Source: a virus
Lineage: Duplodnaviria > Caudoviricetes
Virus record (IMG/VR): IMGVR_UViG_3300035520_000885
Coordinates: 32,001-96,000 of that record
DNA: 64,000 nucleotides
Strand: one strand, 5' to 3'
The position numbers and the translations under genes were made by a program. The notes under the pieces are model-generated. The model saw only the letters and a list, made by a program, of their open reading frames with translations. It made no database searches and was not told the origin of the DNA. Below, in pieces: positions 18,316-48,861 of the stretch. How positions within the stretch are numbered: the stretch's first letter is position 1; the number at the start of each line of letters is the position of its first letter.

Positions 18316-20916
18316 TCATTTTACCATGATTCTGATATAGTTGGCTAGCCTATTATCTGCATCCGTATTATTTTTTGTATCAATAATATCTACTGGGTAC
18401 ATATTAAACATGTTATTGTGACTGATGACGAAGATTTGTTCTCCGTCTATCATATTCATCTGTTTCTCGAGTATCTGTAAGAACTTCTCTCGATTAGATG
18501 TATCCAAAGTAGAATCAATCTCATCTAACAACATGATGTTGTACTTGGAGATGGATTGATATATGAGGGCAAAAGAAAATGCTAAGGATATAAAACTTCT
18601 TTCTCCCTGGGATGCATAACAGACATCTCCAATTTCTGTTCCTTTCGTAGTATAAGGAATCTTGAACTCATCAGCAGTGATATTGAAATTCTCTATATAG
18701 AGTTCATCATCATAGACAATTTCCAGCAACTCATTTGTGATTTCCTGGATACTTTTTAGATATATCTGAATATAGAGAAGAGGAATTCCTTCCTTAGCAG
18801 ATAAAGCATTCTTGACAAGTTCCATCTCATCATATTTTGTATTATATGCTGAGAGGTCTTCATTAAACGATAAGTAAGACTTGATTCTATACTCAGTATC
18901 ATTAAACTCTTTCAACGCTTTTTCATACTCATATTTCAATCGGTCGTACTGCTGGAGGAGGTCTTTCTTTTTTCGAAAAAAATCGGTTAATTCATCATAA
19001 CTATCCTGGAGTTTCTCTACCTCCAGAACAAGTTTTTCTCTAGATTCTAATGCTTCAATAAATTCCTTATGGAATTCAATATCTTCAATGGTATCCTTTC
19101 TATCGGATTCCAGAGTCTCTATCTCTTCGTTGATCTTTGTGAGAGAATCGGCAGTTTTCTCTAATTCATCAGAGATATCTCCAATCTTATTAGAAAGATA
19201 CTCAGAATTTCCAATAGATAGTTTCGTAAGTTTCAACTTCTCTTTCAGTCTATCCAATTCTGCTAAATCCGTTTGCTGCAAATCATATTCTGTGGCAATC
19301 GTTAATAGAGAATAGATAGCTTGCTTATTGTAGATGGGTTTCATATCCACAATATTATCCATGAAAGTCTGAAGAATGAAATCTTTCTGAATATCTGTGG
19401 GAAGCTTCTCTAAAGTAGATTTGCAATCTCTCAGATTCTTCAGAAGCCCCATGATAGTCTGATGAGACATTTTCACATAGGTGACGAATGCTTCATCCTC
19501 AATGACGACATCCGGTTCCTCTGTGACCAAATCAAATAGAGTATTATAGAAATCCTTGATATCACAAGCATCAGTGCATTTTGTTTTAACAGGCCCGATT
19601 TTCTTAAGGATATACTGATACACAACTTCGGCAGCATTCTGAAATTTGCTTTTTTCAGACTTCTGCTTATTACTGGTCACATACTCAGAAATATCCGTAT
19701 TGCTCAGAATATAACTAGCAGCTTTCTTGATGGGTTCTTTTCCAAATTCATACATGGTAAGAACCATCTCAGAGCACTTATCCAGCATGACGATTAAGTC
19801 TTCCAATTCTTCCTTGGATACTTTGTTATCATACTTAGATAAAGAGCACTCTGTATCACGCTTCTGAATCTTTGCACGAAGCTCAGAAATCATATATTCA
19901 AGATTCTTAACGTCAGCAGATTCAGCTATCTTGTCAAGTTCATCTTTAATCTCATTAGAATCACAGATGAGCTTATCGTATACATCAAGAAGTTCTTTTC
20001 TTTTCTCTCTACTATGAGCGATATCAGATTCAATCTGTACTAGATTCTTCTCCAGTTCAGTAGATTCTTCTCTCATTTCTTCCAGAGATTTAGAATCTAG
20101 CTTTCCTTTCTGGACAAGTTTCTCCGCTTTCACACATTCTTTTTTCTTGATATCCAGGTTTTCCTTTACCTCAAGAATAGAATCGTACTTGGAAATCTCA
20201 TACTCAATCACATCAAGTTGACTCTTCATAGAGTCTAGAGCAGACTTCAATGTCTCAATCTGTTTCTGTCTCTCTTTTTGAGATTTCTTAGCCTCATCTA
20301 TGTCTCCAATAGAAAGCTTTGTAATCTTATCTACAGTATGAGAGATGACAGATTTGACTTCTCTCATATCTGCAACGATTTTCTTATAGTATTTCAGATA
20401 GATATCTACTTCATCAAGAATCTTTCCCATGAAGGATTTTCTGTCCGTAGTCTTGAGGTCAATGAAGTTTGTTACATTACTCCCAAGCCTAGTAAGCTTC
20501 AGATAATCCATCTCAATTCCAAGTTCTTCATGGATAATATCCTTGAAGGACTTCACATTTCCATTCACATTCAACTCATTCCCGTTTTTCTCTATATAGG
20601 ATTTTACGGTATGACTGTCCTTAGATGCAGTATAGAAATGCTTGATGACGTATTCGTCTCCATCATCTTCGATACGGATTTCTTTATATCCATCCTCCCC
20701 GCTTACGATAAGAGGATTTTCGCTTCTTACATCCAGATTACCATTTGTAGCAAACGGATGCATACAACTAAGAATACTGGTTTTTCCACTTCCATTTGGC
20801 CCAGTAATCAGTATAATCTTATTTTTACATTTCGTGAGATCAATACTAATCTCATCGCTATGATACGCAGTTTTGATATTTGCGAAGTTTCTTAATAGGA
20901 TATATGTAATTTTCAT
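18316..20916 (-). CDS. sbcC: SbcC/Rad50-like SMC ATPase
   Basis: Walker A GPNGSGKTS, long coiled coil with central CTDAC hook-like motif, signature ASQGE, Walker B LLDEID, H-loop ISH. Confidence 0.88.
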   Translation of the reverse strand: MKITYILLRNFANIKTAYHSDEISIDLTKCKNKIILITGPNGSGKTSILSCMHPFATNGNLDVRSENPLIVSGEDGYKEIRIEDDGDEYVIKHFYTASKDSHTVKSYIEKNGNELNVNGNVKSFKDIIHEELGIEMDYLKLTRLGSNVTNFIDLKTTDRKSFMGKILDEVDIYLKYYKKIVADMREVKSVISHTVDKITKLSIGDIDEAKKSQKERQKQIETLKSALDSMKSQLDVIEYEISKYDSILEVKENLDIKKKECVKAEKLVQKGKLDSKSLEEMREESTELEKNLVQIESDIAHSREKRKELLDVYDKLICDSNEIKDELDKIAESADVKNLEYMISELRAKIQKRDTECSLSKYDNKVSKEELEDLIVMLDKCSEMVLTMYEFGKEPIKKAASYILSNTDISEYVTSNKQKSEKSKFQNAAEVVYQYILKKIGPVKTKCTDACDIKDFYNTLFDLVTEEPDVVIEDEAFVTYVKMSHQTIMGLLKNLRDCKSTLEKLPTDIQKDFILQTFMDNIVDMKPIYNKQAIYSLLTIATEYDLQQTDLAELDRLKEKLKLTKLSIGNSEYLSNKIGDISDELEKTADSLTKINEEIETLESDRKDTIEDIEFHKEFIEALESREKLVLEVEKLQDSYDELTDFFRKKKDLLQQYDRLKYEYEKALKEFNDTEYRIKSYLSFNEDLSAYNTKYDEMELVKNALSAKEGIPLLYIQIYLKSIQEITNELLEIVYDDELYIENFNITADEFKIPYTTKGTEIGDVCYASQGERSFISLAFSFALIYQSISKYNIMLLDEIDSTLDTSNREKFLQILEKQMNMIDGEQIFVISHNNMFNMYPVDIIDTKNNTDADNRLANYIRIMVK

Positions 20917-20992
20917 TCAAATACCTACTTTCTTCTCATATAAGAAACGGTCATCTGAAATATGAAAAAGGTGAGTTTGAATAATTTTCTAC

Positions 20993-21004
20993 AACATAAG
21001 TTTA
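20993..21004 (+). promoter_or_regulatory. Late-type promoter driving a non-coding unit
   Basis: AACA-TAAGTT-TA with no plus-strand ORF downstream. Confidence 0.6.
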
Positions 21005-21290
21005 ATCATTCATCTATGATTTCCCAGGTGGGAGCACTATGTTTATGCTATCAGCATGCCTGTCATGCATAAACTGAGCAGGCTTCTTCGGTGTTGTAGA
21101 GCTTTTTTGCATTTGTTTCCTTCACAGAGATAGATTGCATCTCGTTCACGCGTCTATGGATAACTCCTCCTATATGATATGTTTGGGTGCACGTTACAAT
21201 TTCTGCGGGGCATGCTGATCCGCTAGGGTAGCGGGGCCCTGGCAACCTGCTCAGTTTGACAGGAATCGCATCGAAAGATGCGTGTTAAAT
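21004..21290 (+). ncRNA. Candidate structured non-coding RNA (~285 nt), family not recognised
   Basis: Long perfect helices (21071-21082/21246-21257; 21050-21060/21209-21219), GU-rich inner rod, GAAA tetraloop hairpin, own promoter and terminator. Confidence 0.65.
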
Positions 21291-21291
21291 A

Positions 21292-21327
21292 AAGAAGTGG
21301 ATACAGTTGATTCTGTATCCACTTCTT
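21292..21327. terminator. Bidirectional terminator
   Basis: 15-bp inverted repeat AAGAAGTGGATACAG/CTGTATCCACTTCTT. Confidence 0.75.
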
Positions 21328-21337
21328 AAGACCCATT

Positions 21338-22594
21338 TTACTTGAGTTTGTAAATATCCTTAACGAGATTATTGACGTAATCGACATTAATCATGATAAG
21401 GATTTTATAAGTGTAGTACACATCACAATTGTGGAACTGCAATGTGTAATCATCAAAGTTGATGGTATAGTCCTTCCCATATTCAAGAAGTTTTCCTTGT
21501 TTCCTTACTCTAATTCTAAAGAAGTCCATCAAGGTGATTCCTCTATCTGTATGGAATTTGATTGCAGCTTTGATGCTATTACTCAGTAAGCTATCAATAG
21601 ATACTGAGTCATTTTTTGTCTCCAATCTGCAAGATGGAGAAGCATAAAGTTGCCAGCCCATGGGAAGGTCAATATCATCCTTAGTCAATACGTCTGTGAA
21701 GATAGGAATGATATTGGAATCGTTAGAGTTATCAATTGTGATAACCGTTGGATTCACTAAAGCGTCGGAGAACAGATAATAGAAACCAGTAGAGTAGAAC
21801 TCACATCTCACATTGAAAGAAATACTATACCGCTCAGAAATCTGTCCAACCTGAGACCCTTCATCAGGACTAAAGTTCGTGATGATAGTGTCGATATTCA
21901 CAGGATAGTACCGATAGTATTCATCGGAATTTGTGCTACCTTGAAGCTTATAAGTGATAGGGAAAGCAGAGTTAGAGTTCAGGTATTTCAGAAATTCCCT
22001 GTTGCTTCCATTCTCATCATACATAGGAATCCCTACGATTTTAGAAAGTTGCTCAAGGAGTTTCGGGGAAATGTAACTCTCCAGACATGTCTGAAGGAAG
22101 AATGGAATCTCCTGTCTGACGGCATTCCTGAAATAGTTGGCCCAGTTAATCTGCTGAATCATAGTCTGGAAAATCAATACAACATCGAAATTCATGACAT
22201 GTCGATTCATCTGATACTTGATGGCTACCTTTCTTCCTCTGTCCATAAAAAAATCTTGCAGATTCGTTCCTGCATATTTTGAATACAGGTCTCCCTGTCT
22301 TTCAATCAGCATCGTTCCATTTAAGAACTTAGATGTATCCGTCCAGTCGATTTTAGGACGGATGATAAACATAGGAGGAGCTTTCTTCAGAAACTCCTTT
22401 GGTGTACTCCGCATTTGAGAATGTGAAATCTTAGAATTCACATGGATGGTACGGAATAAATCTTTCGGAAATAGATTCAGTAACCAGTTCTGAATGAATG
22501 CCGTCACATTTCCAAATGTATGAGCCGTAGAGCACTGGCACTGTATATAATGTACAGGGTGACCCTCAAAGAATTCTTTTTTAAAATCCTCCAT
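21338..22594 (-). CDS. Hypothetical protein, probably virion structural
   Basis: ATG at 22594 after GAAAGGAG; late-type promoter at 22620-22631. Confidence 0.75.
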   Translation of the reverse strand: MEDFKKEFFEGHPVHYIQCQCSTAHTFGNVTAFIQNWLLNLFPKDLFRTIHVNSKISHSQMRSTPKEFLKKAPPMFIIRPKIDWTDTSKFLNGTMLIERQGDLYSKYAGTNLQDFFMDRGRKVAIKYQMNRHVMNFDVVLIFQTMIQQINWANYFRNAVRQEIPFFLQTCLESYISPKLLEQLSKIVGIPMYDENGSNREFLKYLNSNSAFPITYKLQGSTNSDEYYRYYPVNIDTIITNFSPDEGSQVGQISERYSISFNVRCEFYSTGFYYLFSDALVNPTVITIDNSNDSNIIPIFTDVLTKDDIDLPMGWQLYASPSCRLETKNDSVSIDSLLSNSIKAAIKFHTDRGITLMDFFRIRVRKQGKLLEYGKDYTINFDDYTLQFHNCDVYYTYKILIMINVDYVNNLVKDIYKLK

Positions 22595-22733
22595 GATTTT
22601 CACTCCTTTCTTTATTGCTTAATACAATGTTTTCTAGGCAATTTCTTGATTCCGTTCTATAAGTGAAGCATATATTATAATACTAAGACATAGAAAGATA
22701 TTCGAATAGATTTTCTAAAAGGAGATGATGACT

Positions 22734-23274: not shown

Positions 23275-25689
23275 TTAAATCAACATGTCATCCACGTCGA
23301 TTTGTTTAGACGAAATATTAGAGGTGTGGAATTTCTTCATACCCAGTCTCAGAAGAGTAGTAGCAATCTTACTACAACCGAGACCAATATTCTGACGGTC
23401 AGTCATGTAATTCATTTCTCCAGCACAGATATTGCAAATCTTGTCTGTAGTGCAGTACATGGGAGATCTCAAATTTACATGCTTTCCAACGTATCTATCA
23501 ATTACATCAGGGGTGAGAAGTTTGGGCTTCCCACCTTCCATAATATAACGATAGAAATAGGATCTCTTATTTTTTTCAGTGATTAAGATATCCAGAGTCT
23601 TCTTGCATTGGCAATCCGTCCCATGGTCATCAATCACTTCAGTCTGCATAGCAGCCAATAGCTGCTTTGCAAGATATCCTGATTCTTGAGTTCCGCATTA
23701 CTTGTATTCATAATAGGTCGTTACTCTATTATCGCTTTATTCAAGCTGCTCTATATTACTATAGAGAGTAGACTATATCATCACTATACATCCTGTTACC
23801 AGACATATAATGCCATGCGCTTCGATTTAATGGATTTACTATAGACTAATCTCATCTATACACCAACCCAATCACTTGGCTCTACTCTACTTACTTCCTC
23901 ATATAGGTGTTTCTCCTATACTATGCTTTCGATAGTCGTTGAACGTCGATTAGAAATCATAATCTTTTGAGATATCCTTTCTTCTTCTATGAGTACGGAT
24001 ATCCTTAACCAATTCTCGTTTAACCCCAAACAATGCAGCAATCTCTGGGTCTTTATACTTCTTTAACTCAAGCATCTTACAAATCCCATGAATAGTGGAT
24101 AATGGAATGGTATTAGGAATTGAATTTCCAAGCTTCGGAAATTTGTATCTGGATGTAATGTGCTTCCAGCACTCACCAGAACGAATGTGTTGTATCGTCT
24201 TTTTTCCAATACCAAGTTTTTTGGAAATCTCTCCATTATTCATTTTCTTCATAATGCATTCGCAGATTTCAATAGCTTCCTTCTCACTAATTTTAGCAAG
24301 ATGCGCATTCTCTCCACGAATACCATCACAAAGACCTTCTCTCCAGGCGTGCTCTGTATTTTCTTTTCCTGTCACCCACTCAAGATTGAAAGCCGCGTTA
24401 TGATGTTTATTCCCATCTTTATGATTAGGAACTAAATCATCGAAGCGCTTTCCATCTTTTTTATGTCGTTTCGGAATCTCACAGAAGTACATAGCAACTA
24501 ACCTATGAATACTGAATTCTTTCTTCTCACCATTTATCTTCACATACCCTCTATAGTATATGAGATTTTGGCCAGAGAAATCATTTATTGTTTTCTTCTT
24601 GGTATTTTTAAGACGACCATGATTCGATATCTGATACTGAGTTCTACTTCCATCATCATTTAGGATCCATTTCCAAACCTCTTTGTACTGACTAAGCATT
24701 GTATTATAGATAGCGTCAGGTTGCTTTGAATTGAAGATAATTTCAAGGTTAAAAGATGTTTTAGGCATTTTGCAATACACTCCCTAATATAAGATTTAGT
24801 ATAATGTACTGCAAACATTATTTTAATAATTTCTAATCTTTCGCTGCTGATTGTCGACACTTGTCGATGTTCCAGCAATTCACATGGTTTAAAGGCTGCC
24901 ACAACTCAAAACAGCCTTCGGGTAAGCGCCTGATACCACAGCAGTACCGAAACTTGGGATGTCTTCTTTACGAATACCATCCATAAAGGAAGACCTCACG
25001 ATTTCGTACTCACCGCGGTTATTCATGGTAGCACCCTTAAATAAATTCATATTCTTGTAGTTACCGAAGTTACCACGAGCTTCTGAATTATATAGATCCA
25101 TACCAGGATCGCCCTTAAGAATCTCTTTTGCATCTGCAACAAGCTTCTTCTCAATCTTTTCAGAAGTAACAATGTCACCTGCATTGAGTTCTTTATCATA
25201 CTTCTTAAATAGCTCTTCCTTTTCTTTCTGTACAGATGGAGGAGTTTTAATTGTATTCATGGTGAAAGAAGTGGTTATGACAGAATTGAGCTGCATTCCC
25301 AGATTATCACGGTAGTCGATATATCTGAAGAACTGGTCAATCGTCATTTTATCTTCAATCAGTGCTTGTGTAAGTTTTCCTTCCAACTTACCATTTACAC
25401 TCTTCGTAATGGGTTCATTGACATAGCCCAAGACTTTCTGCAAGCCAACTCTTTCTACAATGTACTTATTATAGATGAATCTTCCTACAGTAGTTTCAGT
25501 CTCTTTATCAACGAAGTATTCTTTTGGAGTTAATACCATAGTATCAGTGGTGTTGAATCTACTTTTCTTAGTAGATTTCATATCTGCACCAATCTGAGTA
25601 GTATCTCCAAAGAGTCCAACTAAAGTGGAGAAAGATAAGTCTTCCGGTTTCAGAGAAAGCAAGTACTTCTTTTCAGAATCACTAATCAT
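23275..25689 (-). CDS. RNA polymerase beta' C-terminal subunit (probably virion RNAP); exons 25689-24911 and 23695-23275, 399 aa
   Basis: Splicing gives the bridge helix AYPKAV-GTQESGYLAKQL; Zn-site DC...LRSPMYC...CNICAG; in a late-promoter operon. Confidence 0.88.
23696..24910 (-). mobile_element. Group I intron 3 (1215 nt) with HNH endonuclease
   Basis: P1 AAGGCTGT/GCAGCCTT with U.G; P10 TTGAGTT/AACTCAA; AATCAGCAGC, GTTCAACGACTA and GATATAGTCT core; terminal G at 23696; restores a GTC codon. Confidence 0.9.
23950..24768 (-). CDS. Intron-encoded NUMOD4-HNH homing endonuclease
   Basis: EVWKWI...YQISNHGRLKN (NUMOD4), IHRLVA, PNHKDGNKHHNAAFNLEWVTGKENTEHA; ATG at 24768 after GGGAG. Confidence 0.9.
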   Translation of the reverse strand: MPKTSFNLEIIFNSKQPDAIYNTMLSQYKEVWKWILNDDGSRTQYQISNHGRLKNTKKKTINDFSGQNLIYYRGYVKINGEKKEFSIHRLVAMYFCEIPKRHKKDGKRFDDLVPNHKDGNKHHNAAFNLEWVTGKENTEHAWREGLCDGIRGENAHLAKISEKEAIEICECIMKKMNNGEISKKLGIGKKTIQHIRSGECWKHITSRYKFPKLGNSIPNTIPLSTIHGICKMLELKKYKDPEIAALFGVKRELVKDIRTHRRRKDISKDYDF

Positions 25690-30061: not shown

Positions 30062-30895
30062 ATGTGCACCATAATTCAGCAAACTGAGGGGCGGCAAAAG
30101 TATTGCAGAGGTCAGGTCTGGTTCATGAGAGAACCGGTAGATATGACCAATGCGAAGATGGTAAGCGGTGATGGAACAACTGCTTATAATCGTCCAGTTC
30201 TCATTCTCAGCGTGAATGAGGACAATAGGGATTGCCGTACCGTAACGGTAGTTCCTCTGAGCACTTCCCTGTCGCATGTCGATGGTGGCGATGTCCTGTT
30301 CATGACGAATGGGAAAACTATCAAAGCCATGTCCTGGCAGATTACTGCTAAGGACAAGAAGTTCCTTACGGAGTACATGTATTCGGTGGATGCCGAAGTT
30401 ATGGATTCCGTGGAGGCCAAGGTCGCTGCTCATCTAGGATTTGGTCGGAACTATGACTCCGAACTCGTGCAGAAAATAAACGCTTTGCACGAAAAGGTTG
30501 ATTATCTTCTCAGTGAGGATAAATCGACTGGTGAGAAATATCACTCAAAGAGTATCGTAGACAATCCGAATGTCTCGGTGTCTGTGGATACCAGTACTCC
30601 TGAGCCTTATAAGGAAGCCCACGAGGAGGACAGGATCACCAAGTCCGAAGCTCTTGAAAAGATTACCAGAAGGAGGATGACGAAAGAGGAAGGAAAAGCA
30701 TTCGTAGATGACTATACTTCCATGTCTATGGCTGATATGAAAGCCAAGTATGGGAGTAGTGAGGGAGCTATCCGTCAGAAGTATCGCTACTGGTCGGAAA
30801 AGCTCGACCTCAAACCCCAACACAGTGCCCCCCCCCCCCTTCAGAGGGAACGTCCAGCTCTAGTAGGAGCAAGGATTCCATTACCGCTTTCATAG
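30062..30895 (+). CDS. MazF/PemK-like domain protein with C-terminal HTH-like region
   Basis: RGQVWF...NRPVLILS...VTVVPLST...WQITAKDK..L (PemK fold); MADMKAKYGSSEGAIRQK is HTH-like. Confidence 0.75.
   Translation: MCTIIQQTEGRQKYCRGQVWFMREPVDMTNAKMVSGDGTTAYNRPVLILSVNEDNRDCRTVTVVPLSTSLSHVDGGDVLFMTNGKTIKAMSWQITAKDKKFLTEYMYSVDAEVMDSVEAKVAAHLGFGRNYDSELVQKINALHEKVDYLLSEDKSTGEKYHSKSIVDNPNVSVSVDTSTPEPYKEAHEEDRITKSEALEKITRRRMTKEEGKAFVDDYTSMSMADMKAKYGSSEGAIRQKYRYWSEKLDLKPQHSAPPPLQRERPALVGARIPLPLS
30828..30839 (+). repeat. C12 homopolymer at a frameshift point
   Basis: 12 consecutive C in an AT-rich genome; C13 or C10 fuses the gene to the frame ending at 31110. Confidence 0.85.
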
Positions 30896-31158: not shown

Positions 31159-32664
31159 TCATAATCGCCATATCTGAATGGCTTTACATTTTTTCTTCAA
31201 GTGGCTGACTCTAGTCTTATATTGTCTTTCACAAGTAGAGAAAGCGATATCCACTAAATCAAAGAAGTAGGTATCTTTGTCTTTTGCATACTCTCTCAGT
31301 CTTCCGGGTAGCTGATTGCATACGATTGGAGAACTGAAAGGCTCCAAATTTATGATACAACGAAGACCTGGTATATCTACTCCAGTACCACAGGATCTTA
31401 TGGTACTACAGATAATATCCGCACTCTTCGCCTCTTCGTTTACCTCTTTGGTATTAGAAGAATTGATAGTAACGATTTTTTTACCTTGTCCTCTGCAATG
31501 CTCAGATATGAGACTCTGAATAAATTCAGTATCTGCAATCTTTGGCACTGTGACAAGAATCTTTCCCTCTAGCTCAGAAGCCTTATCAAAGACAATGAAG
31601 AAATTCTCTATCTGAGTTTGGTCACGGTCATCGTGTAATGCATACCTTGAAAAATTCAAGACAGAGAAACCATAAGAATTCATTGTGGAAGCAATCTGGG
31701 TGTCAGTCGGATTGCTTCTATACAGCACTGGAACATAGATAATATGCTTTCTTTTTTCTTCTGTCTCCGTAGGTTCATTCCCATATTTAACAACAGATGA
31801 GAAGCACTTCTTGAAAAGTTTCGCTTCTTTACTGTCGCTTCTTTCAAAGTTTGCAGTCAGATAGAATGTCTTTTTCGTATTGGCAAACATGTCTACCCGT
31901 AAGACATTCTTAAATGACAGATGGGCCTCATCGAAAACTTTCACCCCAACATGGAGTTTTTCAAAGAACTTCTTAACTGCTGGCCACCCATGTGTTCTCG
32001 CATAGCTAGTGAGAGTCTGATGATTGACAAAGTAAATATGACCAGCGACCTGCTTTCCTTTCATGATACGCTCGACTACGTCAGTGCCAGATATATTGAC
32101 AATACTCTTAGCTGGGACGTTAGTCATCTTCAGCAACGTATTGATCCACTGCTCTTTAATCTTATCTTGATGTGTGATGATGATAGCTTTCATTCTAAGA
32201 TTCAGTATCGCGCTGATTGTAGAATATGTCTTCCCATCACCAGTATCAAGAATAAGAGCTTGTTGGTGAGCACTATCTAGAAATTTAAATTTCCCAGTAT
32301 TGGATAAGAAAGAAATGCTGTCAACTTGAAGCTGATTCCTAGGCGGAGATAACATCTCCCACTTTGGAAGTCGAGAGCTCTTTATCTCACTCTCATATTT
32401 TATAAAAGCCCTAGAGTTCATCTGTGTCTCTAAGAGCTTCACGTTATAACCCCTTGGCACATAAAGTCTATCATCACAAATATAGTATCCCATAGGGTCA
32501 TATCTGTATTCTGCGTCTATCCAGATGGAAAGAGCTTTTTCGAGATTTTTACACTCTCCAAGCTCATATGGATAAACTTCATAATGTGTATTCATTATGC
32601 TAACTTCTTTTTCCTCTTTCGGCGGCTCGTAATATAACGAGCTGAAAAATGGCGTATTCGGCAT
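31159..32664 (-). CDS. SF2 DNA/RNA helicase (UvsW/ResIII-like)
   Basis: LDTGDGKT, VFDEAH, LTAN, GTGVDIPGL, QLPGRLR. Confidence 0.88.
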   Translation of the reverse strand: MPNTPFFSSLYYEPPKEEKEVSIMNTHYEVYPYELGECKNLEKALSIWIDAEYRYDPMGYYICDDRLYVPRGYNVKLLETQMNSRAFIKYESEIKSSRLPKWEMLSPPRNQLQVDSISFLSNTGKFKFLDSAHQQALILDTGDGKTYSTISAILNLRMKAIIITHQDKIKEQWINTLLKMTNVPAKSIVNISGTDVVERIMKGKQVAGHIYFVNHQTLTSYARTHGWPAVKKFFEKLHVGVKVFDEAHLSFKNVLRVDMFANTKKTFYLTANFERSDSKEAKLFKKCFSSVVKYGNEPTETEEKRKHIIYVPVLYRSNPTDTQIASTMNSYGFSVLNFSRYALHDDRDQTQIENFFIVFDKASELEGKILVTVPKIADTEFIQSLISEHCRGQGKKIVTINSSNTKEVNEEAKSADIICSTIRSCGTGVDIPGLRCIINLEPFSSPIVCNQLPGRLREYAKDKDTYFFDLVDIAFSTCERQYKTRVSHLKKKCKAIQIWRL

Positions 32665-46273: not shown

Positions 46274-48861
46274 TCACTTGGAAGACGTATCAGTGGACTC
46301 TGTACTGTTCTCTTCGTTCTCAACGATGACAGTGCATTTATCCTTACTGACCCCATAGACAGTCATGCTGTCTTTGTTAAACTTCTGAAGCTCATCCAGA
46401 AGTCTATAGTAGTCCTCCTTCGTCTCTGTCGTGATTTGGATGTGTTCCACGTCCTCACTGGACAGGATTCTATCCATATCATTCTTGAAGTCATACATAA
46501 AATCATCAGGTTCCTTGGACTCATCGAAGTAGAGTCCTTGGATTTTGCTGAATGGACTTAGGACACCACTTGTGCCAGGCAAGTATAAAAATTATACTTA
46601 GACTATATCATCATCTACTATACTCTGTTACCAAGTATAATAGAGCTCTTCGTTTCGGATTATTGGAATTTCTTCCTCACCTACATTTCACCCTATGATT
46701 GGGTCTACTCGCTTCGTGCAGATATTTCAATCTACCTTATTTTCAATCTGGCTAAGATAAATCTTATTTATGTATTTCTACAAATCCAGATATCTAGCTT
46801 TCCCTAGTCGTTGAACTCATATCTTATCTTACTAAGATACTTTGCTGCGTCGATTACTCAACATCTCAATCTTTTTACTATACCTTTGGAGTTACCCATT
46901 GCCACTATAGTATTGCTACTATAGTTTAGTAATTGAGACTTACAAGTTTCCCGCAATTAGAAGAGGATTTAAACTATAGATTTCTCTATAGCCCGACCAA
47001 GTCGATCGGAGTTTCCGCACACTAGAATGTCTATATGCCCAAGCATGGAAGGATGTAACCCTCTATACCTAATGGAAATGTTGTTACTGTTTTTGCCTCC
47101 TCGGACAATACAATTCATATCTCTATGAAGCCAGACTATATCTTCATTGTATTTCTACAATGCCTCCCGTTTCGGTTTATTACATCCGAAGATGCTCACC
47201 TACATTTCGCTCTATAATTGAGCCTACTCGGTTCTACCTATTTTATAAGTAGCCTTTCCCTAGTCGTTGAACACACATCTCAATGAGATGCTTCGCTGCA
47301 CCGATTGTCTCTACCTCTAATCTTTTTACTATACCTTTGGAGTTACCCATTGCCATCAGATGTGTCACCACTCTGATTTAGTAATTAGAGTCTAGCGAGA
47401 TGTCCCTGCAGTTAGAGAGGTTTTAATTCTTCCAGAGGTGCCAAAAAGCTTACAGAAGTTAAAGAAATTAATGGACCTTTATTAAGCATAATTTCCTAAA
47501 CCCAGGCAAACTCCTGGCGACAGGTTAAAAGAATGGGGGCCTTTTGTTGTATATTTGTAGTGCGAGAAGAAATCAAGATCATTGATAGTGTCATCGAATC
47601 TCAGAATGCCACTGGAATGCATCTTTTGAATTAAGATTTCACCACTAAATTTGAACATGTCTTGATAATCCTGAAGGGTTGCCTTAGAGCCCAATGTGAT
47701 AATACGATTCAATCTCTTACTGAATTCCATCGTAAGCAAGGATGCGACATACTCATTGCATCTGAGCCGTTTATTCTCGAGTGCGAGGTTGTCCTTCATA
47801 CGTAAGTCATTGAAGTTCTGCATAATCCATCTCAAAAGACAATAGATATCATCCTTATTGTAATCATTGAGCATCAATGTCTTGCGGGTGGTTTCATCCA
47901 AGAGTCGATTACAGAAGGTGAGAATGTCATTCCCCTTCTCAACGCTATTATTATTGGAAAGCTTCCTTATCCAGATTTCCTTGTCATACATATCCTGTAC
48001 GGTAAATCTGTTTGTCGATACAAAAAGAAAAGCTCCCACGATAGACTGAATGTATGGATACTTCAGAAAGAGTTCTTTGTTAATCTCGATAAAGCATTTG
48101 GAAGAAATCTGAAAATACAGATTCTTATCATGGTCAGCATTATCGAGATTCTCCACAAAGTGGAGGATGTTGTCTACTCCTAAGAAAGACAGAGCCCAAT
48201 CCATACCATTCGCTGCGAATAACAGGACTACGGGGATTTCCTTTCTAAAGACGAAGACATTGTATACAGGAAGAAGATACTCTGTACCGTTCACATCTTT
48301 CTTCTCTGCGATACCTTTCACGAGGTTCTCAGTCCTAATGGAGTTGCGCTTGACTGCAACCGGCATCAGAGACTTCAGAGTAACGGACGAAGAGCTTGTA
48401 TAAGTAGACTTATCCACAAGCTGATAGATGATGTAGTACTTCTTGCCCTTTATGAAGTAATACCCATCATCATCCTGCAGAGGAATCAGAATCTTCTTTT
48501 TGATGATTTTCTGACGTACCGTCTTCTCCAGAGTCTTCTGGTCAGTTTCCTCGACAGTAATTTGAATATGGACCGTCAGGCATCCATATCGGTCATCATT
48601 GACAAATTTGTAATCAACACGATCTTTCTTCCGTTTCTTCTTATCTCTCTTGAAGATGAAATCGTTGATATCAATCTCAGATTCTTTCTCAGTATACTCG
48701 AATTTGAGAATCTTGATATTCTTCACAATCTCGAGAGACTTGAAGGCGTCCATGACATACTCTACGAGAGGTCTATCTGCTTCTTTATTCATCAAAGGAA
48801 TATTCAATTCCTTATCGAATTCAGAAACGTAGTCCTTGATGTAGTGCCTCAATTCACTCAC
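46274..48861 (-). CDS. Non-virion RNA polymerase beta N-terminal subunit; exons 48861-47528, 47101-47005, 46579-46274, 578 aa
   Basis: YYFIKGKKY..IYQLVD, LENKRLRCNEY; splicing restores KGPHSLGG...RGLHPSMLGHIDILVCGNSD-PGTSGVLSPF (RpoB fork-loop region); 1737 nt in frame. Confidence 0.9.
46580..47004 (-). mobile_element. Group I intron 5 (ORF-less, 425 nt)
   Basis: P1 TCCGAT/GTCGGG; AATTGCGGGAA, GTTCAACGACTAGGGAAAG and GATATAGTCT core; terminal G at 46580. Confidence 0.88.
47102..47527 (-). mobile_element. Group I intron 4 (ORF-less, 426 nt, ~95-nt L1 loop)
   Basis: P1 ATTCTTT/GAAGAAT (IGS at 47426-47432); CCTCT/GGAGG P10; core motifs as introns 1, 2 and 5; terminal G at 47102 restores a TTA codon. 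Confidence 0.85.

Follow-up and report, generated by a model that had tools for sequence, protein, structure and literature searches.

A predicted family of pseudoknotted RNAs with an anti-Shine-Dalgarno-like element in uncultured AR9-like jumbo phages

Introduction

A 64,000-nucleotide (nt) stretch of viral DNA (Duplodnaviria; Caudoviricetes; positions 32,001 to 96,000 of IMG/VR virus record IMGVR_UViG_3300035520_000885), which we call the window, contains a gap of 421 nt at 20917-21337. The two genes bordering it, sbcC for an SbcC/SMC-like ATPase and a gene for a protein of 421 amino acids (aa), are both on the minus strand, and a promoter motif inside the gap lies on the plus strand. What is transcribed from this gap, on which strand, and to what use? 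The initial annotation of the window had proposed a stand-alone, plus-strand, late-promoter-driven and pseudoknotted RNA of no known family, and this proposal has held: the type of promoter, the joint occurrence of promoter and RNA in relatives, the covariation of the helices and the null result against Rfam all agree with it. The unit, which stands alone and runs from 21004 to ~21335 on the plus strand (~320 nt), is very probably a real, structured RNA gene.

Transcription unit and its distribution

Two elements delimit the unit.

20993-21004, plus strand: AR9-type late promoter AACATAAGTTTA, an exact AACA-N6-TA, with the A at 21004 as predicted transcription start
21292-21327, bidirectional: terminator hairpin of 15 base pairs (bp) with a 6-nt loop, AAGAAGTGGATACAG at 21292-21306 and CTGTATCCACTTCTT at 21313-21327

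Late promoters of phage AR9 have the consensus AACA-(6N)-TA/G, and transcription starts at the last base (PMC5312081). The exact AACA-N6-TA read at 20993-21004 by the initial annotation is indeed there. In the window this motif is rarer than expected (21 sites against 39.7 +/- 5.9), yet in the 114-kb source record, estimated to be 47% complete, intergenic copies stand 1-52 nt, mostly 13-33 nt, upstream of ~14 co-oriented gene starts, that of the 421-aa gene included. Being depleted overall and yet placed just upstream of genes, the motif behaves as the late promoter of this phage. Judged by its sequence, the copy at 20993-21004 is the canonical promoter motif of the phage non-virion RNA polymerase, and what follows it is a predicted late transcription unit.

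The terminator annotated at 21292-21327 is also present, but its T-tract is better on the minus strand (TTTATTT); by this reading the hairpin is primarily the end of the 421-aa gene on the minus strand and serves the plus-strand RNA as a putative bidirectional terminator. The RNA-less relative L075 keeps both the hairpin and its A/T tract. The sequence TATATATAAAA beside the terminator, first taken for an early promoter, was rejected as such, as it is the minus-strand T-tract of the terminator and is found in L075 too.

The locus was followed into related phages via the 421-aa protein, which yielded syntenic loci from IMG/VR (9), metagenome contigs (50) and Logan/ENA assemblies (16), the last reached through the closest relatives of that protein (68-74% identity); a search for related loci with the SbcC-like protein as the handle found nothing. 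An RNA occurs at the same place in ~40 syntenic loci of related metagenomic jumbo phages, which are identified below by L numbers. Most loci have 250-800 nt between sbcC and the 421-aa gene, a plus-strand AACA-N6-T(A/G) 42-76 nt from the start of sbcC, and a large terminator hairpin beside the 421-aa gene. On the other hand, five clear cases without the RNA (L019, L032, L034, L036, L075) have a gap of only 85-105 nt, in which the terminator is kept and the plus-strand promoter is missing. Promoter and RNA body therefore come and go together.

Insertions at the locus separate the unit from its neighbors. L085 has a 92-aa STIV_B116-like gene (L085:3090-3368, minus strand) between sbcC and the RNA. 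L020 and L081 have ~220-440 nt of extra DNA with small open reading frames (ORFs) between the RNA and the 421-aa gene (L081:2775-3090, L020:1470-1700), and in both a terminator of its own, with a plus-strand T-tract, follows directly after the last hairpin of the RNA. Because the RNA keeps its promoter in all three and its terminator in L020 and L081 despite these insertions, the unit behaves as an autonomous gene. The slot between sbcC and the 421-aa gene is, as a separate observation, an insertion hotspot.

The RNA region is single-copy in the 114-kb record. A blastn search of it against 50,697 phage records gave no match, and by BLAST the window RNA was a singleton. Distant relatives could not be aligned to it by MAFFT, and closer ones were fetched through protein identity. 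The clade of the window comprises 12 distinct sequences with alignable ends (window, L084, L071, L077, L072, L070, L020, L085, L079, L081, L076, L083); the seed alignment has 339 columns and ~250 match positions, with an unalignable interior.

Folded core

The following elements, all on the plus strand, make up the predicted fold.

21004-21049, plus strand: 5' leader with hairpins AATCAT/ATGATT and TCCC/GGGA predicted by RNAfold; leaders of relatives are shorter (8-26 nt)
21050-21061, plus strand: 5' strand (a) of the pseudoknot helix, ATCAGCATGCCT, pairing with 21208-21219
21062-21069, plus strand: linker J, GUCAUGCA; relatives have GUCAUGCA, GACAUGCA or (U)AGCA in alignments A4 and A5
21070-21082, plus strand: 5' strand (b) of the outer helix P2, TAAACTGAGCAGG, pairing with 21246-21258
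21083-21207, plus strand: hypervariable insert, 50-200 nt and unalignable in relatives; its GU-rich rod and small hairpins are single-sequence predictions
21208-21219, plus strand: 3' strand (a') of the pseudoknot helix, GGGCATGCTGAT, preceded by a conserved GCG; 12 bp including a U.G
21220-21234, plus strand: small predicted hairpin CCGC-UAGGGUA-GCGG between the 3' strands of the pseudoknot helix and of P2
21246-21258, plus strand: 3' strand (b') of P2, CCTGCTCAGTTTG; 13 bp including a terminal U.G
21267-21282, plus strand: hairpin P3, CGCATC-GAAA-GATGCG, with a stem that covaries in the clade

RNAfold gives the plus strand -118.3 kcal/mol (z = -5.0) and includes the long-range outer helix in its minimum-energy structure, and the P2 and pseudoknot helices of the window are each reached by 0 of 200 dinucleotide-preserving shuffles. 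The initial annotation had proposed testing covariation in homologs that adjoin sbcC; P2, the pseudoknot helix and P3 all covary there.

P2 was sought without bias, as the best ungapped helix that the first 110 nt can form with the last 150 nt, and it was found in 12 of 12 clade members, each with p <= 0.05 against dinucleotide shuffles. Its strands are ACTGAGCAG/CTGCTCAGT in the window, GTTGGACGA/TCGTCCAAC in L084, ACTGAATAG/CTATTCAGT in L072, GTTGAACAG/CTGTTCAAC in L077, TTTAAGCAG/CTGCTTAAA in L079 and TTGGGCAG/CTGCCCAA in L085. On A5, a structure-blind MAFFT alignment, 85.7% of the P2 cells are paired against 29-41% in slid registers, and double-sided change is seen in 9 of 13 pairs (shuffled mean 4.5 +/- 1.3); 0 of 500 shuffles reach the observed values. 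The outer helix as first drawn is shortened: the 13-bp helix covaries, but the CCTGTC/GACAGG extension is not kept, as L084 has CCTGTC without GACAGG.

The crossing pairing that had been proposed was borne out, at 12 bp including the U.G. The pseudoknot helix recurs with different sequence in at least 8 relatives, its 5' strand ending 4-9 nt before P2 and its 3' strand preceded by a conserved GC(G) and placed within the final third of the enclosed region. The pairs are GCATGCC/GGCATGC in the window, TCATACC/GGTATGA in L084, AGTATACT/AGTATACT in L071, TGGACTT/GAGTCCA in L072, GGCATATCTAT/GTAGGTATGCT in L077, TGGGTGTATCCT/GGGGTGCACTCA in L020 and GAGCATATT/GATATGCTT in L085. The closest version, that of L084 (GGGTATGA with TCATACCT), has two compensatory changes relative to the window. 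When the 5' partner was limited to the 22 nt before P2 and the interior was shuffled, 11 sequences gave a Fisher combined p of 7e-4. In an anchor table of 9 sequences, with pairs counted by our own script, 94% of 72 cells are paired (shuffled mean 56%, reached by 0 of 2000 shuffles; slid registers 31-56%), and 7 of 8 positions show double-sided change. The order a, linker, b, insert, a', b' and P3 is, on this comparative evidence, that of a maintained pseudoknot.

At the 3' end, 9 of 11 clade members have the P3 stem, in versions such as AGCATTC/GAATGCT, GCGTG/CACGC, GCACA/TGTGC and AACAC/GTGTT. Of the GAAA hairpin claimed for the window, the stem is kept with compensatory changes but the loop is not, being UUAU, AAA, AUAU, UUAAUU and others in relatives. 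A hairpin of unrelated sequence takes the place of 21220-21234 in L084, L071 and L072; L077 and L020 have no hairpin at this point. Outside the clade of the window, the L003-L008 clade (flanking protein 63-65% identical) has the same order of a, b, a', optional hairpin, b', hairpin and terminator, with a 13-bp a/a' pairing of GAAGA(A)TGTTCTT with AAGAGCAT(T)CTTC and covariation in several hairpins. In still more distant groups (L009, L031, L035, L040 and others) we found long-range helices with the same promoter, motif and terminator, and the knot could not be shown.

Two competing pairings deserve mention. The pairing of GTTTATGC with GCATAAAC, noted earlier as a competitor of the outer helix, does exist in the window, but nothing corresponds to it in L084 or L071. 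The linker resembles the 5' arm of P3, so that the 3' arm of P3 can pair with it instead: J (CAUGCAU, 21062-21072) and the P3 3' arm (AUGCGUG, 21277-21285) form 7 bp in the window and in L070, and both partners are changed in L020 and L079. This pairing may be an alternative fold or a conformational switch.

A last question at this level is whether the gap needs an RNA at all, since it could be a fast-evolving spacer with chance inverted repeats, or an element acting as DNA (a cruciform, or a recombination or packaging site). In favor of this, the element is dispensable, several relatives having a spacer of 85-105 nt in its stead, and its insert is hypervariable. However, the helices stay paired through many double substitutions at homologous positions, and they tolerate G.U pairs, which a DNA cruciform leaves unexplained; promoter, terminator and an 8-nt motif in the insert moreover persist across relatives whose flanking protein is 50-74% identical. 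We therefore regard the absence of a functional RNA as very improbable.

Strand and coding potential

Which strand is functional is asked by the flanking genes themselves, both of which are on the minus strand. In curated tables of homologous helices, G.U cells exceed A.C cells by ~20 to 1-2; a symmetric count gives 9 against 4 for homologous helices and a noisy 19 against 12 for automatically picked ones. Terminal U.G pairs are seen in P2 in 5 of 7 sequences and in the pseudoknot helix in 7 of 9, and in L071, L020, L081 and L077 the plus-strand helices are 3-5 bp longer than those of the minus strand. Together with the position and presence of the promoter and the plus-strand T-tracts of L020 and L081, the G.U excess and the longer helices point to the plus strand as the functional one. 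The same strand had been chosen earlier from GU pairs and a GNRA loop; the former favor it, but the GAAA loop is not conserved and so gives no strand evidence.

The unit had been called ORF-free. It does hold a 60-aa ORF on the minus strand (21063-21245) and short ones on the plus strand, but none of the latter is preceded by a Shine-Dalgarno (SD) sequence, and no ORF is conserved on either strand across the relatives, which argues against a small protein-coding gene. Conservation of the 60-aa ORF as a protein, named beforehand as an observation that would speak against the RNA, was not seen: tblastn gave no significant match in any relative.

The minus strand could nevertheless matter in other ways. 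The region might be a structured leader or intergenic element of an sbcC transcript that reads through or starts separately, with a conserved AAGGAGGU as a "stabiliser SD" or as the ribosome-binding site of a tiny upstream ORF; in a variant of this idea, the plus-strand RNA would be merely a cis-antisense silencer of the sbcC transcript. Besides the orientation of both flanking genes, the minus strand has a significant fold of its own (-101.4 kcal/mol, z = -5.7), and the complement of the 8-nt motif in the insert is a perfect SD, followed at proper spacing by an ATG in L003, L006, L008, L020 and L081. The peptides that would start after this GGAGG (13-64 aa) share neither length nor sequence: the ORF has 15 aa in L003, 25 aa in L006 and L008, 64 aa in L020 and ~56 aa in L081, and the frame in which shared nucleotides are read differs between L006 and L008. 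No start codon is present in the window, L070, L072, L076, L079, L084 and L085, and L071 has ATG-TAA, an immediate stop.

Transcription on the minus strand bears on the same question.

20966-20977, minus strand: late-type promoter-like motif AACT-CACCTT-TT proximal to sbcC, 49 nt before its ATG at 20916 and divergent from the RNA promoter

In nearly all relatives, RNA-less ones included, the minus strand has a motif of the type AAC[T/C/A/G]-N6-T[A/T] 11-49 nt upstream of the sbcC ATG. As sbcC thus has its own conserved proximal promoter motif, the RNA region is not needed as its leader; a strong terminator, besides, precedes the region on the minus strand. With the G.U pairs favoring the plus strand, the plus-strand promoter tracking the element and the terminators of L020 and L081 having plus-strand T-tracts, a functional minus strand appears improbable to us. 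One further motif favors it in the window, AACA-CGCATC-TT (AACA-N6-TT, 21286->21275), which lies inside P3 on the minus strand and is directed towards sbcC; it is not conserved in relatives and is probably fortuitous. As an observation on the sbcC motif itself, the fourth-position variant AAC[T/C]-N6-TA is kept before sbcC in most relatives, and RNA-less relatives have the canonical AACA; the variant may be a weaker or differently timed class of promoter.

Variable insert and anti-SD element

One short element recurs within the hypervariable insert.

21164-21170, plus strand: anti-SD-like CUCCUCC, the window version of (A)CCUCCU(U)

The sequence ACCUCCUU is the anti-SD 3' end of 16S rRNA. The CTCCTCC recorded in the initial annotation proved to be conserved as (A)CCUCCU(U), with one or two copies in the insert of nearly every RNA-bearing locus; examples are UAACCUCCUUA, AAACCUCCUGU, UGACCUCCUUA and AAUCCUCCUUU, beside UAACUCCUCCU in the window. 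Its position floats from 4 nt after P2 to ~40 nt before a'. The predicted probability of being unpaired is 0.81 in the window and mostly 0.6-0.95 in relatives, against RNA means of 0.35-0.5. That the motif persists while its surroundings change and its position floats suggests a displayed binding element and not a part of the folded core.

Comparison with known RNAs

A search of Rfam, which the initial annotation had recommended, returned no family. None of the 4227 models of Rfam 15, which include tmRNA, RNase P, SRP, 6S, group I and II introns, HDV-type ribozymes, pRNA, GOLLD, ROOL, raiA and RsaE, reaches its gathering score in the region; permissive filters give only chance-level matches (E > 0.4), and 11 homologous loci show no recurrent family. 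ARAGORN finds 0 tmRNA or tRNA-like genes in 20800-21500. The earlier remark that hallmarks of tmRNA, RNase P, SRP, 6S and group I/II introns are lacking agrees with these nulls. Outside the RNA unit, the group I model does detect a genuine intron in the window (47113-47509, minus strand; RF00028, 68.3 bits against a gathering score of 50). Since neither the window nor the 11 homologs match Rfam, the RNA is classed as a new family, a novelty judged against Rfam; a published catalogue of >10,000 candidate structured RNAs from IMG/VR, with motifs of 29-151 nt, may list fragments of it (PMC10690425). As far as our searches show, no conserved structured RNA made by jumbo-phage RNA polymerases has been described. 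Among named candidates, tmRNA, 6S, pRNA, ToxI, GOLLD and ROOL do not fit the RNA.

In the order of its crossing strands (a, b, a', optional hairpin, b'), the RNA agrees with ribozymes related to hepatitis delta virus (HDV), whose nested double pseudoknot runs P1-P2-P3/L3-P1'-P4-P2'; in group I introns, the large domain separates a from b and not b from a'. Unlike HDV-like ribozymes, however, the phage RNA has neither a 3-bp P3 with a 7-8-nt L3 directly before a' nor a P1.1. Its helices are 7-14 and 12-13 bp long, and an insert of 50-200 nt takes the place of P3/L3. An HDV-like ribozyme was rejected, as GCG finds no complement in the 12 nt before a' (UUACAAUUUCUGCG) and no HDV-type model in Rfam matches.

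By its displayed element, the RNA resembles the C-rich seed RNAs of Firmicutes (RsaE/RoxS type). In these, too, C-rich motifs, single or several, are left unpaired in A/U-rich context and can pair with the GGAGG or GGGG of ribosome-binding sites, and the RNAs are trans-encoded with their own terminator. The phage RNA differs in being ~3 times longer, in having the full anti-SD ACCUCCUU instead of UCCC, in its covarying pseudoknot scaffold, in being encoded by a phage and driven by a phage RNA polymerase promoter, and in showing no covariance-model similarity. By analogy it may work like this family, of which it is not a member.

GOLLD and ROOL are also large, elaborately folded noncoding RNAs whose function is unknown, and they too come from phages or prophages, in metagenomes of the gut, the rumen and other sources. 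They measure 550-800 nt against 250-400 nt for the phage RNA, which is not tRNA-associated, matches neither model and has a defining anti-SD element and an AR9-type promoter. ToxI and pseudo-ToxI share with it the character of a phage-encoded pseudoknotted RNA and possible endoribonuclease decoy; unlike ToxI, the phage RNA is much larger, has no toxN-like neighbor and lacks tandem 34-36-nt repeats, no tandem repeats at all having been found in the region. The nearest described relatives by transcription are the late antisense transcripts of AR9, whose late promoters also drive non-mRNA transcripts antisense to annotated genes, with no conserved structure reported (PMC5312081). The promoter consensus and the start at its last base are the same; the phage RNA differs in having its own intergenic slot and a conserved fold.

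Function

The explanation that fits best as a whole is a stand-alone noncoding RNA gene whose knotted scaffold displays an anti-SD that pairs with ribosome-binding sites, and we consider the chances of its being right about even. The knotted core would give a stable scaffold and would probably withstand exonucleases. The anti-SD on display would be the working part, pairing with the GGAGG-type ribosome-binding sites of mRNAs; genes of this phage use strong AAGGAGG-type SDs. Translation initiation would then be modulated in middle to late infection, as with C-rich seed RNAs of the RsaE/RoxS type. Taken alone, the claim that the RNA works through SD pairing is one that we hold only tentatively.

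Several points weigh against this reading, some of them against the structure and some against the mode of action. The anchors of the pseudoknot table were chosen by best pairing, though they coincide with conserved flanks; the alignments comprise 7-12 distinct sequences, and their statistics ignore phylogeny. The promoter and terminator of the RNA are themselves read from sequence, and the strand of the flanking genes has, as described above, a perfect SD opposite the motif. As to targets, SD strength is equal behind early-type and late-type motifs (-10.1 against -10.3 kcal/mol), so that an RNA acting as a general anti-SD would also strike late mRNAs of the phage itself. No selectivity is apparent, and the idea that early mRNAs are targeted selectively was rejected on this ground. 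A search of the 114-kb record for targets with extended complementarity found no clear outlier.

The same structured plus-strand RNA might instead act without SD pairing, as a protein decoy or scaffold or as a component of a ribozyme or ribonucleoprotein. As a decoy, which is the main alternative, it would mimic the 3' tail of 16S rRNA and titrate a ribosomal factor, a phage protein or a host abortive-infection toxin with CUCCU-specific endoribonuclease activity; as a ribozyme or ribonucleoprotein component it would use CCUCC as a binding or active-site element. The covarying knot and the conserved single-stranded linkers (GUCAUGCA, GCG and an A-rich stretch after P2) exceed the needs of most base-pairing RNAs, the motif equals the 16S tail and is not merely C-rich, and the equal strength of early and late SDs speaks against a generic anti-SD repressor. 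There is also precedent: the ToxN endoribonuclease is neutralised by pseudo-ToxI RNAs that phages encode, and the anti-SD is a cleavage site of some MazF toxins. On the other hand, the flanks of the motif are variable and bear no resemblance to helix 45 of 16S rRNA, ToxI-style tandem repeats are lacking, no ribozyme family matches and the HDV-like P3/L3 arrangement is absent. The phage does encode a PemK/MazF-like protein of 277 aa (30062-30895, plus strand; PF02452, E = 1.2e-9), but this gene has no homolog in four near-complete relatives that bear an RNA at the locus, and it was therefore rejected as a conserved partner. Action as a decoy, scaffold or ribozyme component strikes us as possible, though on balance unlikely. 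An RNA mimic of the template-strand promoter ([A/T]A-N6-UGUU) was likewise rejected, being not conserved.

More speculative, and in our view somewhat doubtful, is the idea of a new class of large pseudoknotted phage RNAs, made by the jumbo-phage RNA polymerase, that mimic the anti-SD tail of 16S rRNA and thereby reprogram initiation or shield ribosomes from a host nuclease that targets the anti-SD. If this were true, the RNA would be an RNA-level counterpart of the phage-encoded ribosomal protein bS21 or of T4 RegB. Such an RNA may also switch its conformation, with the pseudoknot and P3 formed in one state and J paired to P3 in the other.

Genome context

The genes on either side of the gap are as follows.

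18316-20916, minus strand: SbcC/SMC-like ATPase (sbcC), with Pfam SMC_N and AAA_23 and a PHROG "SbcC-like" match
21338-22603, minus strand: 421-aa protein of unknown function (phrog_21946), with weak tail-terminator and gp15-like leads only

Among the other genes of the phage are split RNA polymerase beta-like subunits (PHROG matches), a GroEL-like gene and a gene for NAD ligase. This is, by the annotated proteins, the gene content of a jumbo phage that has multisubunit RNA polymerases of its own. The phage is an uncultured, AR9-like jumbo phage; its proteins have remote similarity to those of AR9-group phages.

An AT-rich motif of early type, ATATATTAT, has 7 sites in the 114-kb record, 6 of them intergenic and often preceded by GC(T).

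15476 and 22670, plus strand: ATATATTAT sites
36331 and 4309, minus strand: ATATATTAT sites, with three more elsewhere in the 114-kb record

The motif is similar to the early promoter of AR9, AAATATATATTAT, and is likely the early promoter of this phage; it was not found in the RNA region on either strand. A second orphan plus-strand AACA-N6-TA, AACATTATTTTA, lies at 24814-24825 in a 108-nt gap between two minus-strand genes, one NUMOD4/HNH-like (23950-24780) and another at 24889-25689; the nearest plus-strand gene is 1.8 kb further. This site could start another non-mRNA or antisense late transcript. Elsewhere in the window there is a tRNA gene (58785-58858, minus strand, 71.5 bits). A marginal match to the Pseudomonas small RNA P26 (27189-27247, plus strand, 38.9 against 36 bits) is probably a chance hairpin, the phage being unrelated.

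Significance

Jumbo phages with their own RNA polymerases are, to our knowledge, known almost only through their proteins. The predicted RNA family adds to them a defined object, with a compact core of three covarying helices, a hypervariable display loop and an 8-nt copy of the sequence with which the ribosome docks mRNA. It also offers an independent comparative confirmation of AACA-N6-TA promoters in a wide group of uncultured, metagenome-derived jumbo phages. Should the anti-SD not be functional, structural studies and ribozyme screens would still gain a new pseudoknot fold in the core. If the anti-SD is interpreted correctly, the RNA would be a new variant of trans-acting regulatory or decoy RNA, and a functional displayed anti-SD would represent a new viral way to act on translation initiation or to counter a defence that targets the ribosome.

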